A model generated the notes under the pieces. That model was given only the letters and a program-made list of their open reading frames with translations. It had not been told where the DNA came from and ran no database searches. Below are positions 31,233 to 64,000 of a DNA stretch of 64,000 bases, piece by piece (positions within the stretch are counted from its first letter, which is position 1; every line of letters begins with the position of its first letter). Origin of the DNA: Eledone cirrhosa. Its lineage: Eukaryota. A program made the translations under genes and the position numbers. The stretch spans positions 244,838,001-244,902,000 of the forward strand of contig OZ024742.1 of the NCBI GenBank assembly GCA_964016885.1. The letters run 5' to 3'.

Positions 31233-33376
31233 GTTGTGATGTCATTGGAGAGAAGTGTATCCGGAATGATAAAGGTGAGCTTGCCCTCACAAGTGCTGAG
31301 AAGAAAGATGCATGGAAGAGTCATTATGATAGATTACTAAATGAGGAGAATGCATGGGAAGAAGAGACCCTACCCCACGTAGACCCTATAGAGGGACCAG
31401 CAGTACAAGTCAGCGGCAGCGTAGTAAGTAAGGTAATCAGAGATATGAAGATAGGGAAGGCAACCGGTCCATCGGGTATAGCTGCCGAGATGCTGAAGGC
31501 ATCTGGGTCTGTAGGTCACACTATAACCACACGTATCGTTAACCAGGTAATACTAGAGGGGGCCATACCAAAAGATTGGTGCAGTAGCATCATTGTCAAC
31601 TGCTACAAAGGTAAAGGCGATGCACTAGATAGAGGAAACTATAGAGGTATAAAGTTGATGGACCAGGTCATGAAAGTAACAGAAAGAGTTATAGCACAGC
31701 TGATTAGGGACCGGGTGAATATAGACGAGATGCAATTTGGGTTTGTACCAGGGAAAGGCACCACTGATGCGCTCTTCCTTGTGAGGCAATTACAGGAAAA
31801 GTACCTAGCTAAAAGTAAGCCACTCTACTTGGCATTTGTCGACCTTGAGAAAGCCTTTGACAGAGTTCCACGTGCAGTAATCTGGTGGGCTCTTAGAAAA
31901 CTAGGAGTAGATGAATGGCTTGTGAAAGCGGTACAAGCCATGTATAGGGGAGCAGTCAGCAAAGTTAGGATTGGCAATGAGTATAGCGAGGAATTTAGCG
32001 TACAGGTTGGGGTCCACCAGGGCTCTGTTCTTAGCCCTCTCCTGTTCATCATAGTCCTGCAGGCAATAACGGAGGAGTTTAAGACCGGATGCCCATGGGA
32101 ACTCCTGTATGCTGATGACCTCGCACTCATAGCTGAATCTATGGTAGAACTAGAGAATAAATTCCAAACCTGGAAGCAGGGACTAGAGAGAAAGGGCCTC
32201 AAAGTCAACATGACAAAGACTAAGGTCCTTATAAGTAGACGAGAAAACAGAACCCAGATCCCCTCAGGGAAATGGCCTTGCTCAGTATGTAGGAAAGGTG
32301 TAGGTAGGAACTCCATTCTTTGCCCCAAATGCAAACAATGGGTACACAAGAGATGTAGCGGGATCTCAGGAAGCTTAATTAAGAATGTAGGATTCACATG
32401 CAGCAGCTGTGCTGAAACAGCAAGCAAACAGCCACAGGAAACAAGTACCACCAATCTCTGGGAGGGCCCTGTAGAAACAGTAGACAGCTTCTGCTACCTA
32501 GGTGACCGAATTAGCAACGGAGGTGGGTGCTCAGAAAGTACAATAACTAGGGTAAGAACGGGATGGAAGAAGTTTAGGGAACTACTACCACTGCTAGCTG
32601 CAAAAGGCTTCTCCCTCAGAATGAAAGGCAGACTGTATGATGCGTGTATCCGAACAGCGATGTTGCATGGTAGTGAGACCTGGGCGCTGAAGGTGGAAGA
32701 CTTACGTAGATTAGAGAGAAACGAAGCCTGCATGCTCCGATGGATGTGTAACAGTAATATACGTGAACGACAAAGCATAAATGAATTGAGAGAGAGACTG
32801 AGCATAAGAGGAATCAAATGCTGCGTGCAGGAGAGGCGGTTACGCTGGTATGGACATGTGATGCGTATGAAGGATGACAGCTGCATAAAAAGGTGCAGAG
32901 CACTAGAAGTTGATGGAAACCGCGGAGTGGGAGACCCAAGATGACTTGGGATGAGGTGATAAAAGCCGACCTTACCCAACTACACCTCTCAAAGTCAATG
33001 ACACACGACCGTGACTTCTGGCGTCACGCAGTAATACAGGGTACCCGACCTCCCATGGGTACATGCTGAAGCATATAAACAATATGCCCCCCCCCCCCCC
33101 CCCACCGCAAGGTGGTCGTGGAGGTGCCACGGCAAAAAAGCACCCAGCCCACACTGTAAAGTGGACGTGTAGGGCGCCACGAAAAAGCACCCAGCACTCA
33201 CTGTAAATGAGGTTGGTGTTAGGAAGGGCATCCAGCTGTAGAAATCAAGCCAGATCAGTTCCTGTATGAGCAAGGCATGGTCAGCCGACCAGACACTGCC
33301 CACAACAGGACAACCCGTCTAACCCATGCTAGCGTGGAAGAACGGACGTAAAACGGTGATGATGATGATGATGATG
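31233..33376 (+). mobile_element. RTE family A, 5'-truncated, near-identical to the full-length copy
   Basis: Collinear with 47723-49863; a one-G difference at about 32930 shifts the frame (possibly a homopolymer error); (GAT)n tail. Confidence 0.95.
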
Positions 33377-40602: not shown

Positions 40603-40791
40603 TATATGTATATGTGTGTATGTATATATGTGTATGTATATATATGTATATATGTGTATGTATATATATATGTCTATATGTGTATGTATATATGTGTATG
40701 TATATATATGTCTATATGTGTATGTATATATGTGTATGTATATATATATATGTGTGTGTATATATATGTGTATGTATATATATATATATAA

Positions 40792-43454
40792 CCACAAAAG
40801 CCTTCCCTAGTGAGGAATGTACCTCCCAACATAGCTTAGTTGTCAGCGATCTCACGGTCAGAACTAGACGAACCTGGAAACAGAGTCCAACCTGGAGAAG
40901 AAAGATCTGGAAGCTGAAAGACCTCTCAACCAGTAACAGATTTTAAAATATTTTACTCAACACCTACGACAGTAAAGAAGAACAGATAGAGACATTCAAT
41001 GTAGAAGAGAACTGGGAGTTCCTAAAAAATAATTTACTAGAGGCGACGGATGAGGTCTGTGGCTGGAGTAAGACCTCAAGCAGGAGGAGTGTAACTTGGT
41101 GGTGGAACAATAAGGTAGATGAAGCAGTTAAGGCCAAGAGACAGGCATGGAAAGAACGGAAGAACGGGGGAGCAGGGTACAGTACATAGAGACCAAGAGG
41201 GAAGCTAGGCGACAAGTATACTTAGCTAGGAGGGAAGCAAAGGATAGAAAATTCAAACATGTTTTGCAACGTGAGGACCAGAAACAGGAGGTGTTCAAGA
41301 TTGTGAGGCAGTGTGTCAGAGATAGTTGTGATGTCATTGGAGAGAAGTGTATCCGGAATGATAAAGGTGAGCTTGCCCTCACAAGTGGTGAGAAGAAAGA
41401 TGCACGGAAGAGTCATTATGATAGATTACTAAATGAGGAGAATGCATGGGAAGAAGAGACCCTAGCCCAAGTAGACCCTATAGAGGGGCCAGCAGTACAA
41501 GTCAGCAGCAACGTAGTAAGTAAGGTAATCAAAGATATGAAGATGTGGAAGGCAACCGGTCCATCGGGTATAGCTGCCGAGATGCTGAAGGCATCTGGGT
41601 CTGTAGGTCACACTATAACCACACGTATTGTTAACCAGGTAATACTAGGTGTCATACCAAAAGATTGGTGCAGTAGCATCATTGTCAACTGCTACAAAGG
41701 TAAAGGTGATGCACTAGATAGAGGAAACTATAGAGGTATAAAGTTGATGGACCAGGTCATGAAAGTAACAGAAAGAGTTATAGCACAGTTGATTAGGGAC
41801 CGGGTGAAAATAGACGAGATGCAATTTGGGTTTGTACCAGTAAGAGGCACCACTGATGCCCTCTTCCTTGTGAGGCAGTTACAGGAAAAGTACCTAGCTA
41901 AAAGTAAGCCACTCTACTTGGTATTTGTCGACCTTGAGAAAGCTTTGACAGAGTTCCACGTGCTGTAATCTGGTGGGCTCTTAGAAAACTAGGAGTAGAT
42001 GAATGGCTTGTGAAAGCGGTACAAGCCATGTATAGGGGAGCAGTCAGCAAAGTTAGGATTAGCAATGAGTATAGCGAGGAATTTAGCGTACAGGTTGGGG
42101 TCCACCAGGGCTCTGTTCTTAGCCCCCTCCTGTTCATCATAGTCCTGCAGGCAATAACGGAGGAGTTTAAGACCGGATGCCCATGGGAACTCCTGTATGC
42201 TGATGACCTCGCACTTACAGCTGAATCTATGGTAGAACTAGAGAATAAATTCCAAACTTGGAAGCAGGGACTAGAAAGAAAGGGTCTCAAAGTCAACATG
42301 ACAAAGACTAAGGTCCCTGTAAGTAGACGAGAAAACAGAACCCAGATCCCCTCAGGGAAATGGCCTTGCTCAGTATGTAGGAAAGGTGTAGGTAGGAACT
42401 CCGTTCTCTGCCCCAAATGCAAACAATGGGTACACAAGAGATGTAGCGGGATCTCAGGAAGCTTAATTAAGAATGTAGACTTCACATGCAGCAGCTGTAC
42501 TGGGACAGCAAGCAGTAAACAGCCACAGGAAACAAGTACCACCAATCTCTGGGAGGGCTCTGTAGAAACAGTAGACAGCTTCTGCTACCTAGGTGACCGA
42601 ATTAGCAGCGGAGGTGGGTGTTCAGAAAGTACAATAACTAGGGTAAGAACGGGATGGAAGAAGTTTAGGGAACTACTACCACTGCTAGCTGCAAAAGGCT
42701 TCTCCCTCAGAATGAAAGGCAGACTGTATGATGCGTGTATCCGAACAGCAATGTTGCATGGTAGTGAGACCTGGGTGCTGAAGGTGGAAGACTTATGTAG
42801 ATTAGAGAGAAATGAAGCCTGCATGCTCCGATGGATGTGTAACAGTAATATACGTGAACGACAAAGCATAAATGAATTGAGAGAGAGACTGAGCATAAGA
42901 GGAATCAAATGCTGTGTGCAGGAGAGGCGGTTGCGCTGGTATGGACATGTGATGCGTATGAAGGATGACAGCTGCATAAAAAGGTGCAGAGCACTGGAAG
43001 TCGATGGAAACCGCGGAGTGGGGAGACCCAAGATGACCTGGGATGAGGTGATAAAAGCCGACCTTACCCAATTACACCTCTCAAAGGCAATGACACATGA
43101 CCGTGACCTCTGGCGTCACGCAGTAATACAGAGTACCCGACCTCCCATGGGTACAAGCTGAAGCATATAGACAATATGCCCCCACACCCCCCACCGCAAG
43201 GTGGTCGTGGAGGTGCCACGGCAAAAAAGCACCCAGCCCACACTGTAAAGTGGTCATAGAGGTGCCACGAAAAAGCACCCAGCACTCACTGTAAATGAGG
43301 TTGGTGTTAGGAAGGGCATCCAGCTGTAGAAATCAAGCCAAATCAGTTCCTGTATGAGCAAGGCATGGTCAGCCGACCAGACACTGCCCACAACAGGACA
43401 ACCTGTCTAACCCATGCTAGCGTGGAAGAACGAACGTAAAACGGTGATGATGAT
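40792..43454 (+). mobile_element. RTE family A, 5'-truncated and inactivated
   Basis: Collinear with 47190-49863; premature TAA at 40944-46 and a 1-nt deletion near 41943; GAT tail. Confidence 0.95.
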
Positions 43455-43763: not shown

Positions 43764-43798
<35 letters not shown>

Positions 43799-43884
43799 TA
43801 AGATGTCTGACCTGTTGACAAACTCCTAACTCCTTTCCCTGTGTTGAATGTGTGTGTGTATATATATATATATATATTCATTCA

Positions 43885-46195
43885 ATTCATTCAATCTGAA
43901 AATATTGAAGAGATAAGACACTTTGCCATTCTTCTCTGCTAAAATGTACCACTAGAGCTGATTCAAATTTTCCCAGCCAGCCATCCACCTAATCTACGAA
44001 GGTATTTTAGCCTACATATTGTCGTTAATATTATGATGTTCCCTGCTGTATTAGCGTTAAATTTTCCCTGCTGTATTAGCGATAAATTTTCGAGGGTTTC
44101 TCTTAGTAGCTTTTTCATGTCGTTAATATTATGATGTTCCCTGCTGTATTAGCGTTAAATTTTCCCTGCTGTATTAGCGATAAATTTTCGAGGGTTTCTC
44201 TTAGTAGCTTTTTCATGTCGTTAATATTATGATGTTCCCTGCTGTATTAGCGTTAAATTTTCCCTGCTGTATTAGCGATAAATTTTCGAGGGTTTCTCTT
44301 AGTAGCTTTTTCATGTCGTTAATATTATGATGTTCCCTGCTGTATTAGCGTTAAATTTTCCCTGCTGTATTAGCGATAAATTTTCGAGGGTTTCTCTTAG
44401 TAGCTTTTTCATGTCGTTAATATTATGATGTTCCCTGCTGTATTAGCGTTAAATTTTCCCTGCTGTATTAGCGATAAATTTTCGAGGGTTTCTCTTAGTA
44501 GCTTTTTCATGTCGTTAATATTATGATGTTCCCTGCTGTATTAGCGTTAAATTTTCCCTGCTGTATTAGCGATAAATTTTCGAGGGTTTCTCTTAGTAGC
44601 TTTTTCATGTCGTTAATATTATGATGTTCCCTGCTGTATTAGCGTTAAATTTTCCCTGCTGTATTAGCGATAAATTTTCGAGGGTTTCTCTTAGTAGCTT
44701 TTTTCATGACGTTATTATTGTTAATTTTACTGATGTAGTATTAACTTATTAACTTGGATATTTACCATGCGGTATTCTAATCCTATTGTATCTCTCTCAG
44801 TTATTTACCATGCGACCCTCAGTTCCTACCCCCCCCCCCCCTCTATGCACTTCTTTAAGGCTTACTACCCTGTCTTTAACCTAATTCATTCAATCTGAAA
44901 ATATTGAAGAGATAAGACACTTTGCCATTCTTCTCTGCTAAAATGTACCACTAGAGCTGATTCAAATTTTCCCAGCCAGCCATCCACCTAATCTACGAAG
45001 GTATTTTAGCCTACATATTGTCGTTAATATTATGATGTTCCCTGCTGTATTAGCGTTAAATTTTCCCTGCTGTATTAGCGATAAATTTTCGAGGGTTTCT
45101 CTTAGTAGCTTTTTCATGTCGTTAATATTATGATGTTCCCTGCTGTATTAGCGTTAAATTTTCCCTGCTGTATTAGCGATAAATTTTCGAGGGTTTCTCT
45201 TAGTAGCTTTTTCATGTCGTTAATATTATGATGTTCCCTGCTGTATTAGCGTTAAATTTTCCCTGCTGTATTAGCGATAAATTTTCGAGGGTTTCTCTTA
45301 GTAGCTTTTTTCATGACGTTATTATTGTTAATTTTACTGATGTAGTATTAACTTATTAACTTGGATATTTACCATGCGGTATTCTAATCCTATTGTATCT
45401 CTCTCAGTTATTTACCATGCGACCCTCAGTTCCTACCCCCCCCCTCTATGCACTTCTTTAAGGCTTACTACCCTGTCTTTAACCTAATTCATTCAATCTG
45501 AAAATATTGAAGAGATAAGACACTTTGCCATTCTTCTCTGCTAAAATGTACCACTAGAGCTGATTCAAATTTTCCCAGCCAGCCATCCACCTAATCTACG
45601 AAGGTATTTTAGCCTACATATTGTCGTTAATATTATGATGTTCCCTGCTGTATTAGCGTTAAATTTTCCCTGCTGTATTAGCGATAAATTTTCGAGGGTT
45701 TCTCTTAGTAGCTTTTTTCATGACGTTATTATTGTTAATTTTACTGATGTAGTATTAACTTATTAACTTGGATATTTACCATGCGGTATTCTAATCCTAT
45801 TGTATCTCTCTGTTATTTACCATGCGACCCTCAGTTCCTACCCCCCCCTCTATGCACTTCTTTAAGGCTTACTACCCTGTCTTTAACCTAATTCATTCAA
45901 TCTGAAAATATTGAAGAGATAAGACACTTTGCCATTCTTCTCTGCTAAAATGTACCACTAGAGCTGATTCAAATTTTCCCAGCCAGCCATCCACCTAATC
46001 TACGAAGGTATTTTAGCCTACATATTGTCGTTAATATTATGATGTTCCCTGCTGTATTAGCGTTAAATTTTCCCTGCTGTATTAGCGATAAATTTTCGAG
46101 GGTTTCTCTTAGTAGCTTTTTTCATGACGTTATTATTGTTAATTTTACTGATGTAGTATTAACTTGGATATTTACCATGCGACCCTCAGTTCCTA
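43885..46195 (+). repeat. Nested tandem repeat in the RTE-A 5' UTR: four ~404-bp monomers containing 7, 3, 1 and 1 copies of a 98-bp subunit
   Basis: Monomers start at 43885, 44884, 45487 and 45891; 98-bp subunits at 44020, 44118 ... 44608; 45019, 45117, 45215; 45622; 46026. Confidence 0.95.
44886..44919 (+). promoter_or_regulatory. Candidate Inr + DPE internal Pol II core promoter (repeated in each monomer)
   Basis: TCATTC fits Inr TCAKTY (A+1 = 44888); AGACA at +28 to +32 (44915-44919) fits DPE RGWYV at canonical spacing. Confidence 0.6.
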
Positions 46196-46440
46196 CCTCA
46201 CAATTTCCCTCCCCCCCACCCCCACACACCACCATAGCCTATTCGACCAATCAAACCTAGCATGCCATTTCCACTGCTGCTGCTGCTACTACCTGCCTAA
46301 CTAACTCTCTCCTCCTCTGGCGCATCCCAACACACCCTGCCATTACCCCACCACCACTGTCCTTCTAGCCCTCAATTTTCCCACCGTTAGGGATGGATGA
46401 GCTGGGAATACACGAGCAACTCTGAATCAATAGATGAAAT

Positions 46441-49400
46441 ATGAATCTGCGAGCTACCAAGCACCCACGTGAAGCGCCAACCCAGAGACCCTCCCCTACG
46501 AGTGTCGACAAATGCCCAAAACTCCGAGTTGGTACCATCAATGTAGGCTCAATGAAAGGAAGAGCAGGAGAAATCGTAGAAATGCTAGAGCGAAAGGAAG
46601 TTGATGTATGCTGTGTGCAAGAGACTAGATGGAGAGGAGGGTCTGCTAGAGTCCTTGTAGGAAAAAGCCAGTGCTACAAATTTTTCTGGGTGGGAAATGA
46701 CGATGGGATGGGTGGTGTAGGTATACTATTAGCTGACAAGTGGGTAGATAAAGTAATCTCAGTGTACAGGGTAAATGCAAGAATCATTAAACTCAGACTA
46801 GTCCTGAATAAGACAATTACCACAATAATATCAGCTTACGCACCCCAATCGGGGCTGCCAGACGAACTTAAGGATAGGTTTTACGAGTCCCTAATACACA
46901 CTACTGCTCTAACAGACGACAAGGACTTCCTAATCATTGCAGGAGATTTTAACGGACACGTAGGTAAACACTGCGACGGCTTCAATAGAGTACATGGAGG
47001 CCATGGAGTTGGCACAAGGAATGAGGAAGGATTCAGACTTCTAGAATTCTGCGACGCCAATGACATGTCGATATGTAACACAAACTTTAAAAAACCCGAC
47101 AACCACCTGATCACCTATAGATCAGGGGAGCACTCTAGTCAGTTAGATTTTATCCTCATCAGAGGACGTGACAGATGGACGGTCGTAAACACAAAAGCCT
47201 TCCCTAGTGAGGAATGTACATCCCAACATAGCTTAGTTGTCAGCGACCTCACGGTCAGAACTAGACGAGCCCTGAAACAGAGGCCAACCTGGAGAAGAAA
47301 GATCTGGAAGCTGAAAGTCCCCTCAACCAGTAACAGATTTAAAGATATTTTACTCAACGCCTACGACAGTAAAGAAGAACAGATAGAGACATTTAACGTA
47401 GAAGAGAACTGGGAGTTCCTAAAAAATAACTTACTAGAGGCGACGGATGAGGTTTGTGGCTGGAGTAAGACCTCAAGCAGGAGGAGAGTGACTTGGTGGT
47501 GGAACAATAAGGTAGATGAAGCAGTCAAGGCCAAGAGACAGGCATGGAAAGAATGGAAGAACGGGGGGAGCAGGGTACATTACATAGAGACCAAGAGGGA
47601 AGCTAGGCGACAAGTATACTTAGCTAGGAGGGAAGCAGAGGATAGAAAATTCAAGCATGTTTTACAACGTGAGGACCAGAAACAGGAGGTATTCAAGATT
47701 GCGAGGCAGTGTGTCAGAGATAGTTGTGATGTCATTGGAGAGAAGTGTATCCGGAATGATAAAGGTGAGCTTGCCCTCACAAGTGCTGAGAAGAAAGATG
47801 CATGGAAGAGTCATTATGATAGATTACTAAATGAGGAGAATGCATGGGAAGAAGAGACCCTACCCCACGTAGACCCTATAGAGGGACCAGCAGTACAAGT
47901 CAGCGGCAGCGTAGTAAGTAAGGCAATCAGAGATATGAAGATAGGGAAGGCAACCGGTCCATCGGGTATAGCTGCCGAGATGCTGAAGGCATCTGGGTCT
48001 GTAGGTCACACTATAACCACACGTATCGTTAACCAGGTAATACTAGAGGAGGCCATACCAAAAGATTGGTGCAGTAGCATCATTGTCAACTGCTACAAAG
48101 GTAAAGGCGATGCACTAGATAGAGGAAACTATAGAGGTATAAAGTTGATGGACCAGGTCATGAAAGTAACAGAAAGAGTTATAGCACAGCTGATTAGGGA
48201 CCGGGTGAATATAGACGAGATGCAATTTGGGTTTGTTCCAGGGAAAGGCACCACTGATGCGCTCTTCCTTGTGAGGCAATTACAGGAAAAGTACCTAGCT
48301 AAAAGTAAGCCACTCTACTTGGCATTTGTCGACCTTGAGAAAGCCTTTGACAGAGTTCCACGTGCAGTAATCTGGTGGGCTCTTAGAAAACTAGGAGTAG
48401 ATGAATGGCTTGTGAAAGCGGTACAAGCCATGTATAGGGGAGCAGTCAGCAAAGTTAGGATTGGCAATGAGTATAGCGAGGAATTTAGCGTACAGGTTGG
48501 GGTCCACCAGGGCTCTGTTCTTAGCCCTCTCCTGTTCATCATAGTCCTGCAGGCAATAACGGAGGAGTTTAAGACCGGATGCCCATGGGAACTCCTGTAT
48601 GCTGATGACCTCGCACTCATAGCTGAATCTATGGTAGAACTAGAGAATAAATTCCAAACCTGGAAGCAGGGACTAGAGAGAAAGGGCCTCAAAGTCAACA
48701 TGACAAAGACTAAGGTCCTTATAAGTAGACGAGAAAACAGAACCCAGATCCCCTCAGGGAAATGGCCTTGCTCAGTATGTAGGAAAGGTGTAGGTAGGAA
48801 CTCCATTCTTTGCCCCAAATGCAAACAATGGGTACACAAGAGATGTAGCGGGATCTCAGGAAGCTTAATTAAGAATGTAGGATTCACATGCAGCAGCTGT
48901 GCTGAAACAGCAAGCAAACAGCCACAGGAAACAAGTACCACCAATCTCTGGGAGGGCCCTGTAGAAACAGTAGACAGCTTCTGCTACCTAGGTGACCGAA
49001 TTAGCAACGGAGGTGGGTGCTCAGAAAGTACAATAACTAGGGTAAGAACGGGATGGAAGAAGTTTAGGGAACTACTACCACTGCTAGCTGCAAAAGGCTT
49101 CTCCCTCAGAATGAAAGGCAGACTGTATGATGCGTGTATCCGAACAGCGATGTTGCATGGTAGTGAGACCTGGGCGCTGAAGGTGGAAGACTTATGTAGA
49201 TTAGAGAGAAACGAAGCCTGCATGCTCCGATGGATGTGTAACAGTAATATACGTGAACGACAAAGCATAAATGAATTGAGAGAGAGACTGAGCATAAGAG
49301 GAATCAAATGCTGCGTGCAGGAGAGGCGGTTACGCTGGTATGGACATGTGATGCGTATGAAGGATGACAGCTGCATAAAAAGGTGCAGAGCACTAGAAGT

Positions 49401-49560
49401 TGATGGAAACCGCGGAGTGGGGAGACCCAAGATGACTTGGGATGAGGTGATAAAAGCCGACCTTACCCAACTACACCTCTCAAAGTCAATGACACACGAC
49501 CGTGACTTCTGGCGTCACGCAGTAATACAGGGTACCCGACCTCCCATGGGTACATGCTGA
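46441..49560 (+). CDS. RTE-A polyprotein (1039 aa): APE endonuclease + reverse transcriptase + PHD finger
   Basis: APE: GTINVGSM, VQETRW, SAYAPQ, AGDFNGH, SQLDFIL, SQH. RT: [27 protein letters not shown] at 48763-48900. No stops. Confidence 0.96.
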   Translation: MNLRATKHPREAPTQRPSPTSVDKCPKLRVGTINVGSMKGRAGEIVEMLERKEVDVCCVQETRWRGGSARVLVGKSQCYKFFWVGNDDGMGGVGILLADKWVDKVISVYRVNARIIKLRLVLNKTITTIISAYAPQSGLPDELKDRFYESLIHTTALTDDKDFLIIAGDFNGHVGKHCDGFNRVHGGHGVGTRNEEGFRLLEFCDANDMSICNTNFKKPDNHLITYRSGEHSSQLDFILIRGRDRWTVVNTKAFPSEECTSQHSLVVSDLTVRTRRALKQRPTWRRKIWKLKVPSTSNRFKDILLNAYDSKEEQIETFNVEENWEFLKNNLLEATDEVCGWSKTSSRRRVTWWWNNKVDEAVKAKRQAWKEWKNGGSRVHYIETKREARRQVYLARREAEDRKFKHVLQREDQKQEVFKIARQCVRDSCDVIGEKCIRNDKGELALTSAEKKDAWKSHYDRLLNEENAWEEETLPHVDPIEGPAVQVSGSVVSKAIRDMKIGKATGPSGIAAEMLKASGSVGHTITTRIVNQVILEEAIPKDWCSSIIVNCYKGKGDALDRGNYRGIKLMDQVMKVTERVIAQLIRDRVNIDEMQFGFVPGKGTTDALFLVRQLQEKYLAKSKPLYLAFVDLEKAFDRVPRAVIWWALRKLGVDEWLVKAVQAMYRGAVSKVRIGNEYSEEFSVQVGVHQGSVLSPLLFIIVLQAITEEFKTGCPWELLYADDLALIAESMVELENKFQTWKQGLERKGLKVNMTKTKVLISRRENRTQIPSGKWPCSVCRKGVGRNSILCPKCKQWVHKRCSGISGSLIKNVGFTCSSCAETASKQPQETSTTNLWEGPVETVDSFCYLGDRISNGGGCSESTITRVRTGWKKFRELLPLLAAKGFSLRMKGRLYDACIRTAMLHGSETWALKVEDLCRLERNEACMLRWMCNSNIRERQSINELRERLSIRGIKCCVQERRLRWYGHVMRMKDDSCIKRCRALEVDGNRGVGRPKMTWDEVIKADLTQLHLSKSMTHDRDFWRHAVIQGTRPPMGTC

Positions 49561-49863
49561 AGCATATAAACAATATGCCCCCCCCCCCCACCGCAAGGTG
49601 GTCGTGGAGGTGCCACGGCAAAAAAGCACCCAGCCCACACTGTAAAGTGGACGTGTAGGCGCCACGAAAAAGCACCCAGCACTCACTGTAAATGAGGTTG
49701 GTGTTAGGAAGGGCATCCAGCTGTAGAAATCAAGCCAGATCAGTTCCTGTATGAGCAAGGCATGGTCAGCCGACCAGACACTGCCCACAACAGGACAACC
49801 CGTCTAACCCATGCTAGCGTGGAAGAACGGACGTAAAACGGTGATGATGATGATGATGATGAT

Positions 49864-49884
49864 ATATATATATGTATGTGTGTG

Positions 49885-49916
<32 letters not shown>

Positions 49917-50534
49917 TCTGTCGATACGACCAGATATCAACACAGCAACTACAGCAACAGCAACAACACCATTGTCTGTGTTGAATGTGTGTGTATGTAT
50001 GTATATATATATGTGTATGTGTGTGTATGTATGTATATATATATATGTGTATGTATATATATACATGTATATATGTATATATGTATATATATATGTATAT
50101 ATATATGTATATATCACACACGCGAAGCAAACAAATTTCAAAATTTCAACCCAGCGACTACAACAGCAGTAACAACAACAGCAACAACACCATTGTCTGC
50201 AGCATCAGTGAAATGAACAACAACAACTGCCACCACCATCACTGACACCATCCACCACAAGCACCACCACCACCATCACTGGCACCACCATCCACCACCA
50301 CCAGCGATCATGCCTTAAGAAGAAAAGAAAACAACTATAATACTAAATAACTATTCTGTTCTTGGCATGGGGCAGCGATTGTCCCAGCGCATTGCTGGTG
50401 CCTTGTTTTTTGGGGCCTGGAGAGTGGAGCGCCGTTGCTCTTTGCTGTAAAGCAAACAATTATTATTATTATTATATAAAAACTGAATTGGAAAAGTCAA
50501 CAGTTGACATGATTTTGTATCAGTACTGACGGTA

Positions 50535-50567
<33 letters not shown>

Positions 50568-50700
50568 TGGCGTGTGTGTGTTTGTATGCATTAGCGTTGG
50601 TGTGTGAGTGGTGTGTGTGTTTGTATGCATGAGTATTGGTGTGTGTGTGCCGTGAGTGTCAATAAGTGGTGTTTTCTTTTTTTGTTTTTTTTTGTTTTGT
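49864..50700 (+). repeat. Duplicated low-complexity segment (with 43797-43860), paralogous to 62781-63970
   Basis: Shared unique blocks such as CACACACGCGAAGC, CAGCGATTGTCCCAGCG and GGAAAAGTCAACAGTTGACATG, separated by TG/TA/CAA/CAC microsatellites. Confidence 0.9.
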
Positions 50701-53549
50701 TATTACCATGCTGTAAAATGGAGGAGTAGAGAGGGCCCATGAGTCCAGTAAGACATCCTCTCTAGTGCTGGTGGCATGAATAAAAGCACCCAGTCCATGC
50801 TGTAAAGTGGCACTGGTGTTAGGAAAGGCATCCAACCAGTGTATCAATGCCAAAACAACTATAAGCACAGCAACAATTATATAGGAACAACAACAAAAAA
50901 ATATGTAGATGTCGCATCTCAGAGTTGCAACACTTAATGTTGGCACTCTCACAGGTAGATCTGCTGAAATAGCGGAGATGCTGGAGAGAAGGCATGTGGA
51001 TGTGTGCTGCGTGCAAGAGGTGAGATGGAGAGGTGCCTCTGCGAGACTAGTTGCAGGCAAACATCTTAGCTATAAGCTTTTCTGGGTAGGTAAGGATGAT
51101 GGGTTAGGGGGAGTAGGCATTTTCCTGGCTGAGAGATGTATTAATAAGACAATAGAGGTAGTTCGAGTTAATAATCGAATAATTAAGCTTAGATTAGTTG
51201 TAGGCAGGAGACTACTGATAATCATCTCTGCCTATGCTCCCCAAGCAGGCCTAGGCAAAGAAGAAAAAGACTGCTTTTACGCGCAACGTTTACAAACAAC
51301 CGCAATGACAGAGGACGGAGACATCGTTATGCTAGCAGGAGACTTCAATGGCCATGTTGGACAGCTCCAGGATCGTTACACTGGGGTACATGGTGCACAC
51401 GGTTACGGCTCAAGAAATGAAGAAGTGAGACTTCTTGAATTTTGTGATGCAAGTACACTGTTTCTGACACTAACTTCCAGAAACCTGCCAACCACCTAAT
51501 AACCTACAAATCTGGCGAGCACATAAGCCAGATTGACTTCTTACTAGTTAGGCAGTGGGACAGGCAGATGGTGTCTAATACCAAGGCATACCCTGGGGAA
51601 GAATGTACCCCACAGCATAGGTTAGTCGTTAGTGATATCACAGTAAGCAATAGATGGAATGAGTCATACAGGAAGGTGTGGAGAAGAAAGGTCCGGAAGC
51701 TAAAAGCCCTTTCACTGAAATACAAATTTTGGAAAGCCCTTCAAGATGTGTATGACAAAAAAGAAGACGATTTAGAGACGTATGACATAGATAATAAACT
51801 GGAATTTCTTATGTGACAACTTACTGCAGGCTACTGATGAAACTTGTGGCTGGAGCAGAGCTCCAACCAGACAGAGAGTGACCTGGTGGTGGGACAGCAC
51901 AGTAGATAAGGCTAATAGAGACAAAAGACTAGCATGGAAGGCTTGGAAAAAGGGTGGGAGTAGAGAAGGATATACAGCCGCTAAGAGAGAAGCTAGACGT
52001 CAGGTGTACTTAGCACGCAGGGAGGCTGAGAGGAGGAGGTTTGTCAGTGTTCTGCGATGGGAAGATTAGAGGCGTGTGGTGTTCCACATTGCAAGGCAGT
52101 GTGTCAATGCAAATCAGGATGTTGTTGGAGATAAATGTGTCCGGAATGATGCCGGTATACTTAGTGTCACAAATTATCAGAAAAAGGAGGCCTGGAAATG
52201 TCATTATGAGAAACTGATGAATGTGGAGAACAAATGGGAGAGAGGGAAATTACCCTCAGTAGATCCGACAGAGGGACCAGCTATTGAGATTGACATATAT
52301 AGGGTCCAAGAGGCGATTAAGGAAATGAAAAATGGTAAGGTTGCTAGACTGTTGGGGAAAGTTGCTGAGATGCTGGAGGCATCAGGGGACGTAGGCACTA
52401 AACTGGTTGCACGCATCATCAATCAGGCTATATATGGTGGTGTCATACCCAAAGACTGGTGCAGCAGTATTCTCATAAATTGCTACAAAGGTAAAGGGGA
52501 TGCTCTGGAGAGGAGCAGTTATAGGGGTATGAAACTGATGGGTCAGGTTATGAAAGTGGCAGAAAGGATATTAGCACAACTAATTAGAGAAAGGGTTAGA
52601 CTAGATGAGATGCAGTTTGGTTTTGTGCCTGGGAAAAGTACAACAGATGCCCTCTTCTTGGTGAGACAATTACAAGAGAGGTTCTTAGAGAAGAATAAGC
52701 CACTATACTTAGCCTTTGTTACCTAGAGAAGGCCTTTGATAGGGTACCCCGATCTGTCATCTGGTGGTCCCTAAGGAAACTAGGTGTTGAAGAATGGGTT
52801 GTGAGGACAGTGCAAACTTTGTACAGAGGTGTTGTCAGTAAACTCAGGGTAGGAATGGAGTTTAGTGAGGAATTCCAGATACAAGTAGGAGTACATCAAG
52901 GTTTGGTCCTCAACCTGCTCTTGTTCATTATAGTCCTCCAAGCCATAACAGAGGAGTTTAAGACTGGCTGTCCATGGGAACTTCTCAATGCTGACGATCT
53001 GGTTCTTATAGTAGAATCAGTAGAGGAGCTAGAGAATAAATTCTGGCTATGGAAATAGCAGTTGGAAGCAAGAGGACCGAGAATGAACCTAGCTAAGACA
53101 AAAGTGTTGATGAGTAGAAAAGAGGACAAAACTCTGATTCCATCAGGGAAATGGCCATGTTCGATATGCAGAAAAGGAACTGGCCTAAATTCTATAAAAT
53201 GCACACAATGCAGATGCTGGGTACACAAGAGATATAGTGGGATAGCAGGCAAACTAACAGGTAGGAAGAAATACGTATGCAGTAGATGTACAGAGAAATT
53301 AGACAGTAGCAGTCGCATTGATAGACACATTTTTCAAATGCAGGCGGGTGCTATAGAAGTGGTGGATAGCTTCCGGTACCTAGATCAGATTAGCATGGGA
53401 GGGGGGTGTTCCGAGACCATAGCATCTAGAATAAGGACGGGTTGGTAGAAGTTTAAGGAGCTGCTTCCTCTGCTGATGAAGAAGGGTTTCTCCCTGTGTA
53501 CGAAAGGCCGGTTATATGATGCCTGTGGGAGCAGCGTGATGCTGCATGG
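50700..53549 (+). mobile_element. RTE family B, decayed, retains 5' UTR and APE domain, 3' end deleted
   Basis: ORF pieces from 50909 to 53549 (ATLNVGTL, VQEVRW, GDFNGH, RT, PHD) with many stops and frameshifts; AGGAAAGGCATCC module upstream of the ATG. Confidence 0.93.
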
Positions 53550-62780: not shown

Positions 62781-63800
62781 ACTAAGACCTGTTGACAAAC
62801 TGCTAACTCCTTTGTTGAATGTGTGTGTATATATATGTATGTGTGTGTATATATGTATGTATATATATATCTCAGTGGATGTGACCAGATTTCAACACAG
62901 CAGCAACTACAGCACAGCAGCAACAACACCATCGTGTCTGTGTTGAATGTGTGTGTGTGTATGTATGTATGTATATATATAAATGTATGTGTCACACACG
63001 CGAAGCGAACACATTTCAACCCAGCGAATACAACAGCAGCAACAACACCATTGTCTGCAGCAGCAGCATCAGTGAAATGAACAACGGCAGCAACAAAAAC
63101 GACAACAACAACAACGAGCCACCACCCACCACCTACACCACCACACAATCACCACCACGATCCACCACCATCACTGGCATCATCCACCACCATCACTGGC
63201 ATCATCCACCACCACCACCATCACTACCTTCACTGTCATTATCCACCACCACAACCATCACCATCACTGACACTATCCACCACCTTCACCACCACCATCA
63301 CTGGCACCATCCACCAGCACCACCATCACCATCAGACACTATCCACCACCACCGACACCATCCATCACCATCCACCACCACCACTATCACCAGCGATCAG
63401 GCCTTAAAAACAACTATAATAATTGTTTCTACTTTTGGCACAAGGCCAGCCATTATCCCAGTGTATTACTGGTACGTTATTTTATCGACCCTGTAAGGAT
63501 GAAAGGCAAAGTTAACCTCGGCGGGATTTGAACTCAGAATGGCAAGAGCCGTAACTCTATGCGCCAAAGCATGGCGTCCGACACTCTACCGATACTGCCA
63601 ATTACTAAATAGCTATTTTGTTCTTGGCACGGGGCAGCGATTGTCCCAGCGTATTGCTGGTGCCTTGTTTTTTGAGGCCTGGAGAGTGGAGAGCCGTTGC
63701 TCTTTGCTGTAAAGCAAACAATTATTGTTATTATTATATAAAAACTGAACTGGAAAAGTCAACAGTTGACATGATTTTGATTTTGTATCAGTACTGCCGG

Positions 63801-63853
<53 letters not shown>

Positions 63854-64000
63854 GTGTGTGTGAGTGGTGTGTGTTTGTATGCATGAGTGTTGGTGTGTCA
63901 GTGGTGTGTATGTTTGTAGTTTGTATGCATGAGTGTGTGTGCCGTGAGTGTCAATAAGTGGGTTTTTTATTCTTATGACCATGCTGTAAAATGGAGGGGT
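62781..64000 (+). repeat. Paralog of 43797-43860 + 49864-50725, running into another RTE-B 5' end at the window edge
   Basis: Collinear unique blocks; lacks the 6-kb RTE-A; has an extra SINE and an expanded CAC/CAT tract. Confidence 0.9.
63420..63602 (-). mobile_element. S1 SINE, 183 bp
   Basis: Full S1 pattern; empty site at 50340|50341. Confidence 0.9.

Follow-up and report, generated by a model that had tools for sequence, protein, structure and literature searches.

Background

In the elements jockey, I, Doc and F a single promoter lies at a fixed 5′ end, and in TRE5-A of Dictyostelium the A-modules occur in tandem multiples. In mouse, L1Md A, Gf and Tf, and likewise rat L1, carry a variable number of tandem monomers followed by a tether of about 250 bp before the ORF (PMC5381506, PMC6454616, PMC9022269). 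The 5′ truncation profile of mouse L1 has been used to infer its start site and duplication is thought to maintain the promoter. Promoter output has been described as non-linear with respect to monomer number (PMC9022269), and the way in which monomer promoters are extended has been called unclear for mouse L1 (PMC6454616). The Drosophila jockey element has a TATA-less Inr with RGWYV at +28 to +32 and T17, G19 and G24, and has been used as a DPE-dependent promoter (PMC4180977). The A-module of TRE5-A is a modular unit of 200 bp in the 5′ UTR of a non-LTR element and has promoter activity (PMC3159450).

In this work we have analyzed a window of 64,000 nucleotides from Eledone cirrhosa. It contains a LINE insertion on the plus strand, extending from position 43878 to about 49863, in which an array of tandem monomers forms the 5′ UTR of a young element with a single APE-RT ORF. 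The family of this element is designated here family A. To judge from its sequence, family A would work like the mouse L1 monomer promoter and have a jockey-like core, but it is no L1. It differs from mouse L1 in being another type of LINE, with a single ORF and no ORF1, in having AT-rich monomers (36% GC) instead of a CpG island, and in carrying an Inr+DPR motif where mouse L1 has a YY1-linked start. Of the two, family A alone has a nested array of 98-bp subunits, and its truncation peak is the weaker one, with 20% of the ends in 40 nt. Unlike the jockey-type elements, family A has a repeated core, most of its copies start in mid-array, and its promoter is a predicted one. TRE5-A differs from family A in belonging to another clade, in being targeted to tRNA genes and in having two ORFs.

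Results

Organization of the window element

All features of the element lie on the plus strand. At its 5′ end the beginning of the head is duplicated over 9 nt (43878-43886), and this duplicate abuts a (TA)n target. Monomer 1 (43887-44885; 999 bp) consists of a 133-bp head, seven 98-bp subunits (44020-44705) and a tail bearing poly-C. Monomer 2 (44886-45488; 603 bp) has three subunits (45019-45312), monomer 3 (45489-45892; 404 bp) a single one (45622-45719), and the partial monomer 4 (45893-46189; about 297 bp) again a single one (46026-46123), followed by a shortened tail. The heads, TCATTCAATC, start at 43887, 44886, 45489 and 45893, with A+1 at 43889, 44888, 45491 and 45895. The initial annotation had spoken of four near-identical monomers of about 404 bp; there are indeed four heads, but the monomers differ in length and 404 bp applies to the one-subunit form only. 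Its subunit counts of 7, 3, 1 and 1 were confirmed in the order as assembled (12 copies), as was the presence of an 18-mer twice in every subunit, 24 times in the array.

The exact order 7, 3, 1, 1 rests on the assembly, so that the array might be suspected of being an assembly artefact. Such an explanation is barely credible given the 1652 exact matches of the whole monomer head in the genome, the locus-specific array structures in 100 parsed copies, and the occurrence of both types of joint, subunit-subunit and monomer-monomer, in short-read contigs.

Downstream of the array lie a single-copy "tether" of the 5′ UTR (46190-46440; 251 bp), 84% identical to that of subfamily A2, one intact ORF of 1039 amino acids (46441-49560) encoding an APE endonuclease, a reverse transcriptase and a PHD finger, and the 3′ UTR (49561-49863), whose terminal (GAT)n tail (49842-49863) is followed by the (TA)n target. 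No separate ORF1 was found between the last head and the ORF, where the longest ATG-led frame has 73 codons. Ten ATGs, including that of this frame, precede the ORF downstream of the A+1 of monomer 4 (45895-46440). As transcripts from the outer monomers would contain far more of them, translation is likely to need reinitiation or internal entry.

The element was inserted into (TA)n within another repeat. The homologous target site at 62786-62900 is uninterrupted, which indicates that the entire array arrived with the insertion. The surrounding repeat belongs to a further family, B: the window element is nested in its long leader (43790-50910), which is followed by an ORF at 50912 (61% amino acid identity at the N-terminus), and a second copy of the leader is found at the window end (62786-64000). 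Two 5′-truncated copies of family A lie upstream in the same orientation, at 31233-33375 (99.5% identical) and 40789-43454 (96% identical), separated by multi-kb tracts of the (TA)n type.

Class assignment

The element combines a single ORF for APE endonuclease and reverse transcriptase with a microsatellite 3′ tail, (GAT)n, in place of poly(A), as has been described for RTE elements (PMC5850137, PMC6007223). Both traits agree with the published descriptions of the RTE clade (PMC5850137, PMC6007223), to which the element is provisionally assigned. Homologues of the ORF at 45-55% identity, numbering at least 120 among the matches listed, carried no clade names, and the Atlas clusters had generic names or none. 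RTE-2_OV, AdLINE3 and Perere-3, all of the RTE clade, likewise possess a single APE-RT ORF of about 1000-1100 amino acids and a microsatellite 3′ tail (PMC9115989, PMC5850137, PMC6007223). Unlike family A, RTE-2_OV has a 5′ UTR of about 600 nt, with no monomers in the description consulted, and Perere-3 has a twister ribozyme at the 5′ end. Three short motifs gave no matches in eight supplementary files on RTE-2_OV, the sequence of which may sit in four others. The literature searched, where 5′ UTR terms matched poorly and the coverage stopped short of Repbase and most subscription papers, yielded no RTE element whose promoter is made of monomers.

The monomer head as a candidate core promoter

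In each of the four heads an Inr is combined with RGWYV (AGACA) at exactly +28 to +32 and with the preferred T+17, G+19 and G+24, in keeping with the initial annotation, which had reported TCATTC with AGACA at this position in every monomer. The cores, from the Inr through +34, occupy 43887-43922, 44886-44921, 45489-45524 and 45893-45928. The DPE consensus and the strict spacing from the Inr have been described (PMC5580651), T+17, G+19 and G+24 have been reported as extra positions of DPE promoters (PMC4180977), and the DPR has been defined as +17 to +35, with RGWYS as a narrower form of the DPE (PMC10270198). When the 404-bp monomer was shuffled 20,000 times with its dinucleotides preserved, a loose Inr+DPE arose in 16% and a strict one in 0.7%, and a strict one together with T+17, G+19 and G+24 arose once. 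The sequence at +28 to +33 (AGACAC) does not match the narrower RGWYS or RGWYVT form; that at +18 to +27 agrees with the MTE consensus (PMC5580651) at 5 of 10 positions and does not qualify as an MTE. No TATA box was seen in the window heads, which have TTTAAGG, without TATA consensus, at -34 to -28.

Taken with the conservation and the distribution of 5′ ends presented below, this arrangement makes it quite probable that each monomer head serves RNA polymerase II as an internal core promoter of the Inr+DPR kind. Caution as to DPE function in this animal is suggested by an annelid, in which DPE promoters were without special features and the authors of the study doubted DPE function (PMC7854359).

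Family A copies in the genome

A 25-mer of the 3′ part of the ORF has 7560 exact matches in the genome, and the array-tether junction 374. The first 100 of these 374 junction copies, all on contigs C1 and C2, were parsed. The ORF is intact in 76 of the 98 copies having a located start codon, and the 96 full bodies depart from the majority by a median of 5 differences in 3661 nt, which indicates that family A is very young. When two duplicated loci and three copies that end within the last, partial tail had been set aside, 95 elements were left. Of these, 80 have an intact head and 51 have two or more (range 0-15). Monomers are thus a trait of the family, and the suspicion that other full-length copies might lack them, raised with the initial annotation, did not hold. 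Monomers with a single subunit characterize the more diverged sub-lineages, with the exception of one copy (L042) that has four, and the youngest has up to 19.

Two copies (L040, L171) show 5′ inversions, with part of the array inverted at the 5′ end of the element. Several insertions of families A and C are hosted by a satellite of 18-bp units on C1 (7-10 Mb; L194-L201, L095, L096). The sequencing data covered comprised seven runs, all in the form of contigs; the one RNA run among them (share 0.11) gave a single contig that is uninformative on transcription. Runs of other species (X6, X7) yielded short near-identical pieces at a depth below 15, which may be contamination or prey and were left aside.

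Where copies begin

Few target-site duplications were usable: among 90 elements a complex match of at least 8 nt was present in 3 (convincing in L177) and a microsatellite-only match in 42. The 5′ ends were therefore set by alignment. Five of the 95 elements were censored by a fetch edge or a gap, leaving 90 resolved ends, three of them hand-corrected. Eighteen of the 90 fall in +1 to +40, against 6.5 expected from the bases at risk (3.2-fold, p = 7e-5). The excess persisted after a scan over all 40-nt windows (p = 0.0016) and after stratification for microhomology with TA targets (p = 3e-4; scan-corrected, 0.011). One of the 90 ends lies exactly at +1. A non-C base precedes A+1 at 13 places genome-wide, of which 5 are true element starts and the others internal variants; two control positions had one match each, with 1 and 0 true ends (Poisson p about 0.003-0.005 for 5). 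At G000:C3:58326551-58326637 (L056/L057) a 53-bp duplication comprises flank and head, and both copies start exactly at A+1.

The remaining 72 of the 90 ends lie outside +1 to +40. The earlier statement that the 5′ end coincides with a monomer start holds approximately for the window copy, which begins 11 nt upstream of the first A+1 with the 9-nt head-start duplicate, but not for the family as a whole. Ends occur across the array at 6.5e-4 per base, compared with roughly 9e-4 along the ORF (estimated from the 7560 3′ copies and the 374 at the junction), and stops in the first 40 nt account for 18 of 259 head passages (about 7%; 8 of 87 at the last head). With an array stop rate close to that of the ORF and few stops per head, templates must mostly have been longer than the copies made from them. 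We infer that the donors have long arrays, whose RNAs arise either for the most part at the outer monomers or by read-through of upstream transcription.

The 5′ ends also bear on the proposal that a self-cleaving ribozyme in each monomer sets the end, as with the twister variants of Perere-3 or the HDV-like ribozyme of R2. There is a precedent within an RTE family (PMC8501958), but here the ends are scattered over 40 nt with no single cut site, no Rfam ribozyme was found at E ≤ 5 in 45480-46700, and four segments of the monomer showed no stronger folding than their shuffled versions (z from +0.11 to -0.60). We consider this explanation very unlikely, and a ribozyme-headed element was rejected on the Rfam and folding results.

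Conservation of the core among subfamilies

Family A comprises subfamilies A1, A2 and A3. A2 was found by a search with the ORF N-terminus, independently of the motif, and A3 by a pattern search that gave 92 places, the first 30 of which were examined; as these were selected on +15 to +34, their identity in that segment is by construction. Three copies of family B matched the pattern used, too small a number for a judgement. In A2-type heads TCA+1CTY stands at the unchanged distance from the DPE in 24 of 30 and carries one change in 2 of 30, and the other 4 are truncated within +1 to +15, one of them exactly at A+1.

While the ORFs of A1, A2 and A3 are 96-97% identical, their monomers agree in 54-58% of the aligned columns. 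No stretch shared by the three subfamilies is longer than a block of 20 nt at +15 to +34 (45909-45928 in the last monomer of the window); the second longest has 9 nt, and immediately beyond the block there is a 3-nt indel. The block overlaps the DPR window (+17 to +35), and its spacing from the Inr is unchanged in the three subfamilies; owing to the origin of A3, this comparison is only partly free of selection by pattern. The Inr of A2 and A3, TCACTC, deviates from the strict Drosophila Inr. Within A1, 245 full heads hold 8 variants in -2 to +33 against 12 and 33 in the following two windows of 35 nt; the segment +104 to +131 is equally quiet (8 variants). In 3 elements the stretch from Inr to DPE is shortened by a deletion of 1 nt at +14. 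In a very long array on contig C11, described below, the Inr-DPE spacing is kept in 52 of 63 heads of the fetched parts.

From these comparisons the +15 to +34 element appears to be kept by selection. As regards the initial proposal of an Inr+DPE promoter in every monomer, the spacing and the block conserved in three subfamilies and the excess of 5′ ends after A+1 speak for it, whereas the fact that most copies start off the heads does not.

Families without the motif

Family C (621 anchor matches) has about 70% amino acid identity to family A. Its 5′ monomer arrays reach at least three heads in 3 of 70 loci, two of these having at least seven, with periods of about 500-520 bp. Divergence among subfamilies made the extents of its copies unreliable, and the test of 5′ ends was confined to family A. 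The monomers have no significant similarity to the A monomer, and Inr+DPE was found in none of the first 30 loci checked. Since arrays occur in A and C and the motif in A alone, the stack would be a habit of the lineage and the Inr-DPR core particular to family A. In the family C arrays at L204, L210, L276 and L282, with monomers of about 440-520 bp, a GC-rich box is accompanied by (CT)n and (TA)n; this might be a TATA-type promoter, which would depend on a monomer upstream.

The arrays of family C without the motif would suit a different explanation of the whole structure, namely that it is a neutral, unstable tandem repeat, that the mobile RNA is read-through from an upstream host or element, and that Inr-DPE is a relic or due to chance. 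It is also in line with the 80% of 5′ ends that resemble ordinary truncation, with the many copies that adjoin other elements and with reports of non-LTR elements lacking internal promoters (PMC8501958). A neutral repeat leaves unexplained, nevertheless, why one conserved 20-nt block sits on the DPR window at fixed spacing, why a motif that arises in 1 of 20,000 shuffles is present, and why ends are in excess at and after A+1, and we regard it as distinctly improbable.

How the array changes

Arrays are homogeneous within a copy. In the multi-subunit lineage, 27 elements with regular arrays have two or more complete monomers; neighbouring monomers with equal subunit number make up 46 of their 74 pairs, against 17.8 by permutation. 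Substitutions private to one element recur in at least two of its monomers in 7 of the 34 elements with three or more heads. In a long array at G000:C1:408.53 Mb (L052-L054, L143) a variant of the Inr that differs by one base reappears at intervals of 3-4 monomers, which marks block duplication.

A very long array belongs to subfamily A3 (284-bp monomer), heads of which occupy some 42 kb at G000:C11:3144000-3186000 (L297-L299; sequence outside the middle 20 kb was used), in front of an ORF. The ORF downstream is 96% identical to the window ORF, and the monomers show diverged higher-order units. By its sequence this array is a satellite grown from a 5′ UTR. Its size favours duplication at the DNA level after insertion, and the same argument has been made for very long mouse L1 arrays (PMC6454616).

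Alternatively, with the same promoter, the array could be regrown at reverse transcription, the cDNA at the RNA 5′ end re-annealing to a downstream head or priming the second strand there. This is one of the two routes proposed for mouse L1 (PMC6454616), and it would accommodate the small duplications near A+1 (9 nt in the window copy, 53 bp in L056/L057), the widely differing array structures of very young copies and the periodic subunit counts, such as the blocks 5,4,5,4,7 and 3,3,2,3,3,2. The exclusion of the last monomer that it predicts was not supported by the data, however, as the last monomer equals the previous one in 9 of 17 cases and inner pairs are equal in 32 of 47 (p = 0.38). An array of about 42 kb with diverged higher-order units would, moreover, be hard to copy in one event at about 6e-4 stops per base. 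Regrowth at reverse transcription is accordingly given little likelihood. The initial description of the promoter as self-renewing can be retained in the sense of array regrowth, for which the equal pairs speak, with the DNA level as the more likely site. Tuning by copy number, the other part of that description, would be a mere possibility, the mouse precedent being non-linear (PMC9022269).

The subunit contains a 9-mer which has been multiplied separately in the subfamilies, being present in 24 copies in A1 (the window array), 4 in an A2 copy and 82 for 44 heads in A3. In family C, none of the 30 loci checked has it within the 600 nt upstream. The repeated 9-mer is a putative factor-binding site.

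Discussion

The reading we prefer, and hold as a whole to be somewhat probable, is that family A carries a stack of promoters which buffers it against truncation and is regrown at the DNA level. Each monomer head would be an internal Pol II core promoter, presumably bound by TFIID, with initiation at A+1. With the heads stacked, copies truncated at the 5′ end would keep a promoter, and lost monomers would be regained mainly by DNA-level duplication after insertion, probably through unequal exchange or slippage. Initiation would take place mostly at the far-upstream monomers of long-array donors, the first 40 nt of a head being the end point of only about 7% of the copies that pass it.

A bolder version, which we put forward tentatively and think more doubtful than not, takes families A and C together. 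The monomer strategy of mouse L1 would have evolved independently at least twice in an RTE-type lineage within one genome, the selected Inr-DPR core would be working in a spiralian, and output raised by multiplication of the 9-nt site would have driven the burst of family A. The sequence of events would then have been a 25-bp duplication followed by the array of 98-bp subunits, which number as many as 19 in the youngest lineage.

Conclusions

Transcription of RTE-type LINEs is poorly documented in the literature searched, and one case uses a ribozyme. In family A both the predicted start (A+1) and the element proposed (+15 to +34) are defined exactly and can be tested. Such a test would also show whether DPE-type promoters work outside insects and humans. 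With subunits that are nested and can be counted, the hundreds of near-identical copies, some of whose arrays are now satellites, would in addition serve as a record of the duplications by which a monomer promoter is extended.
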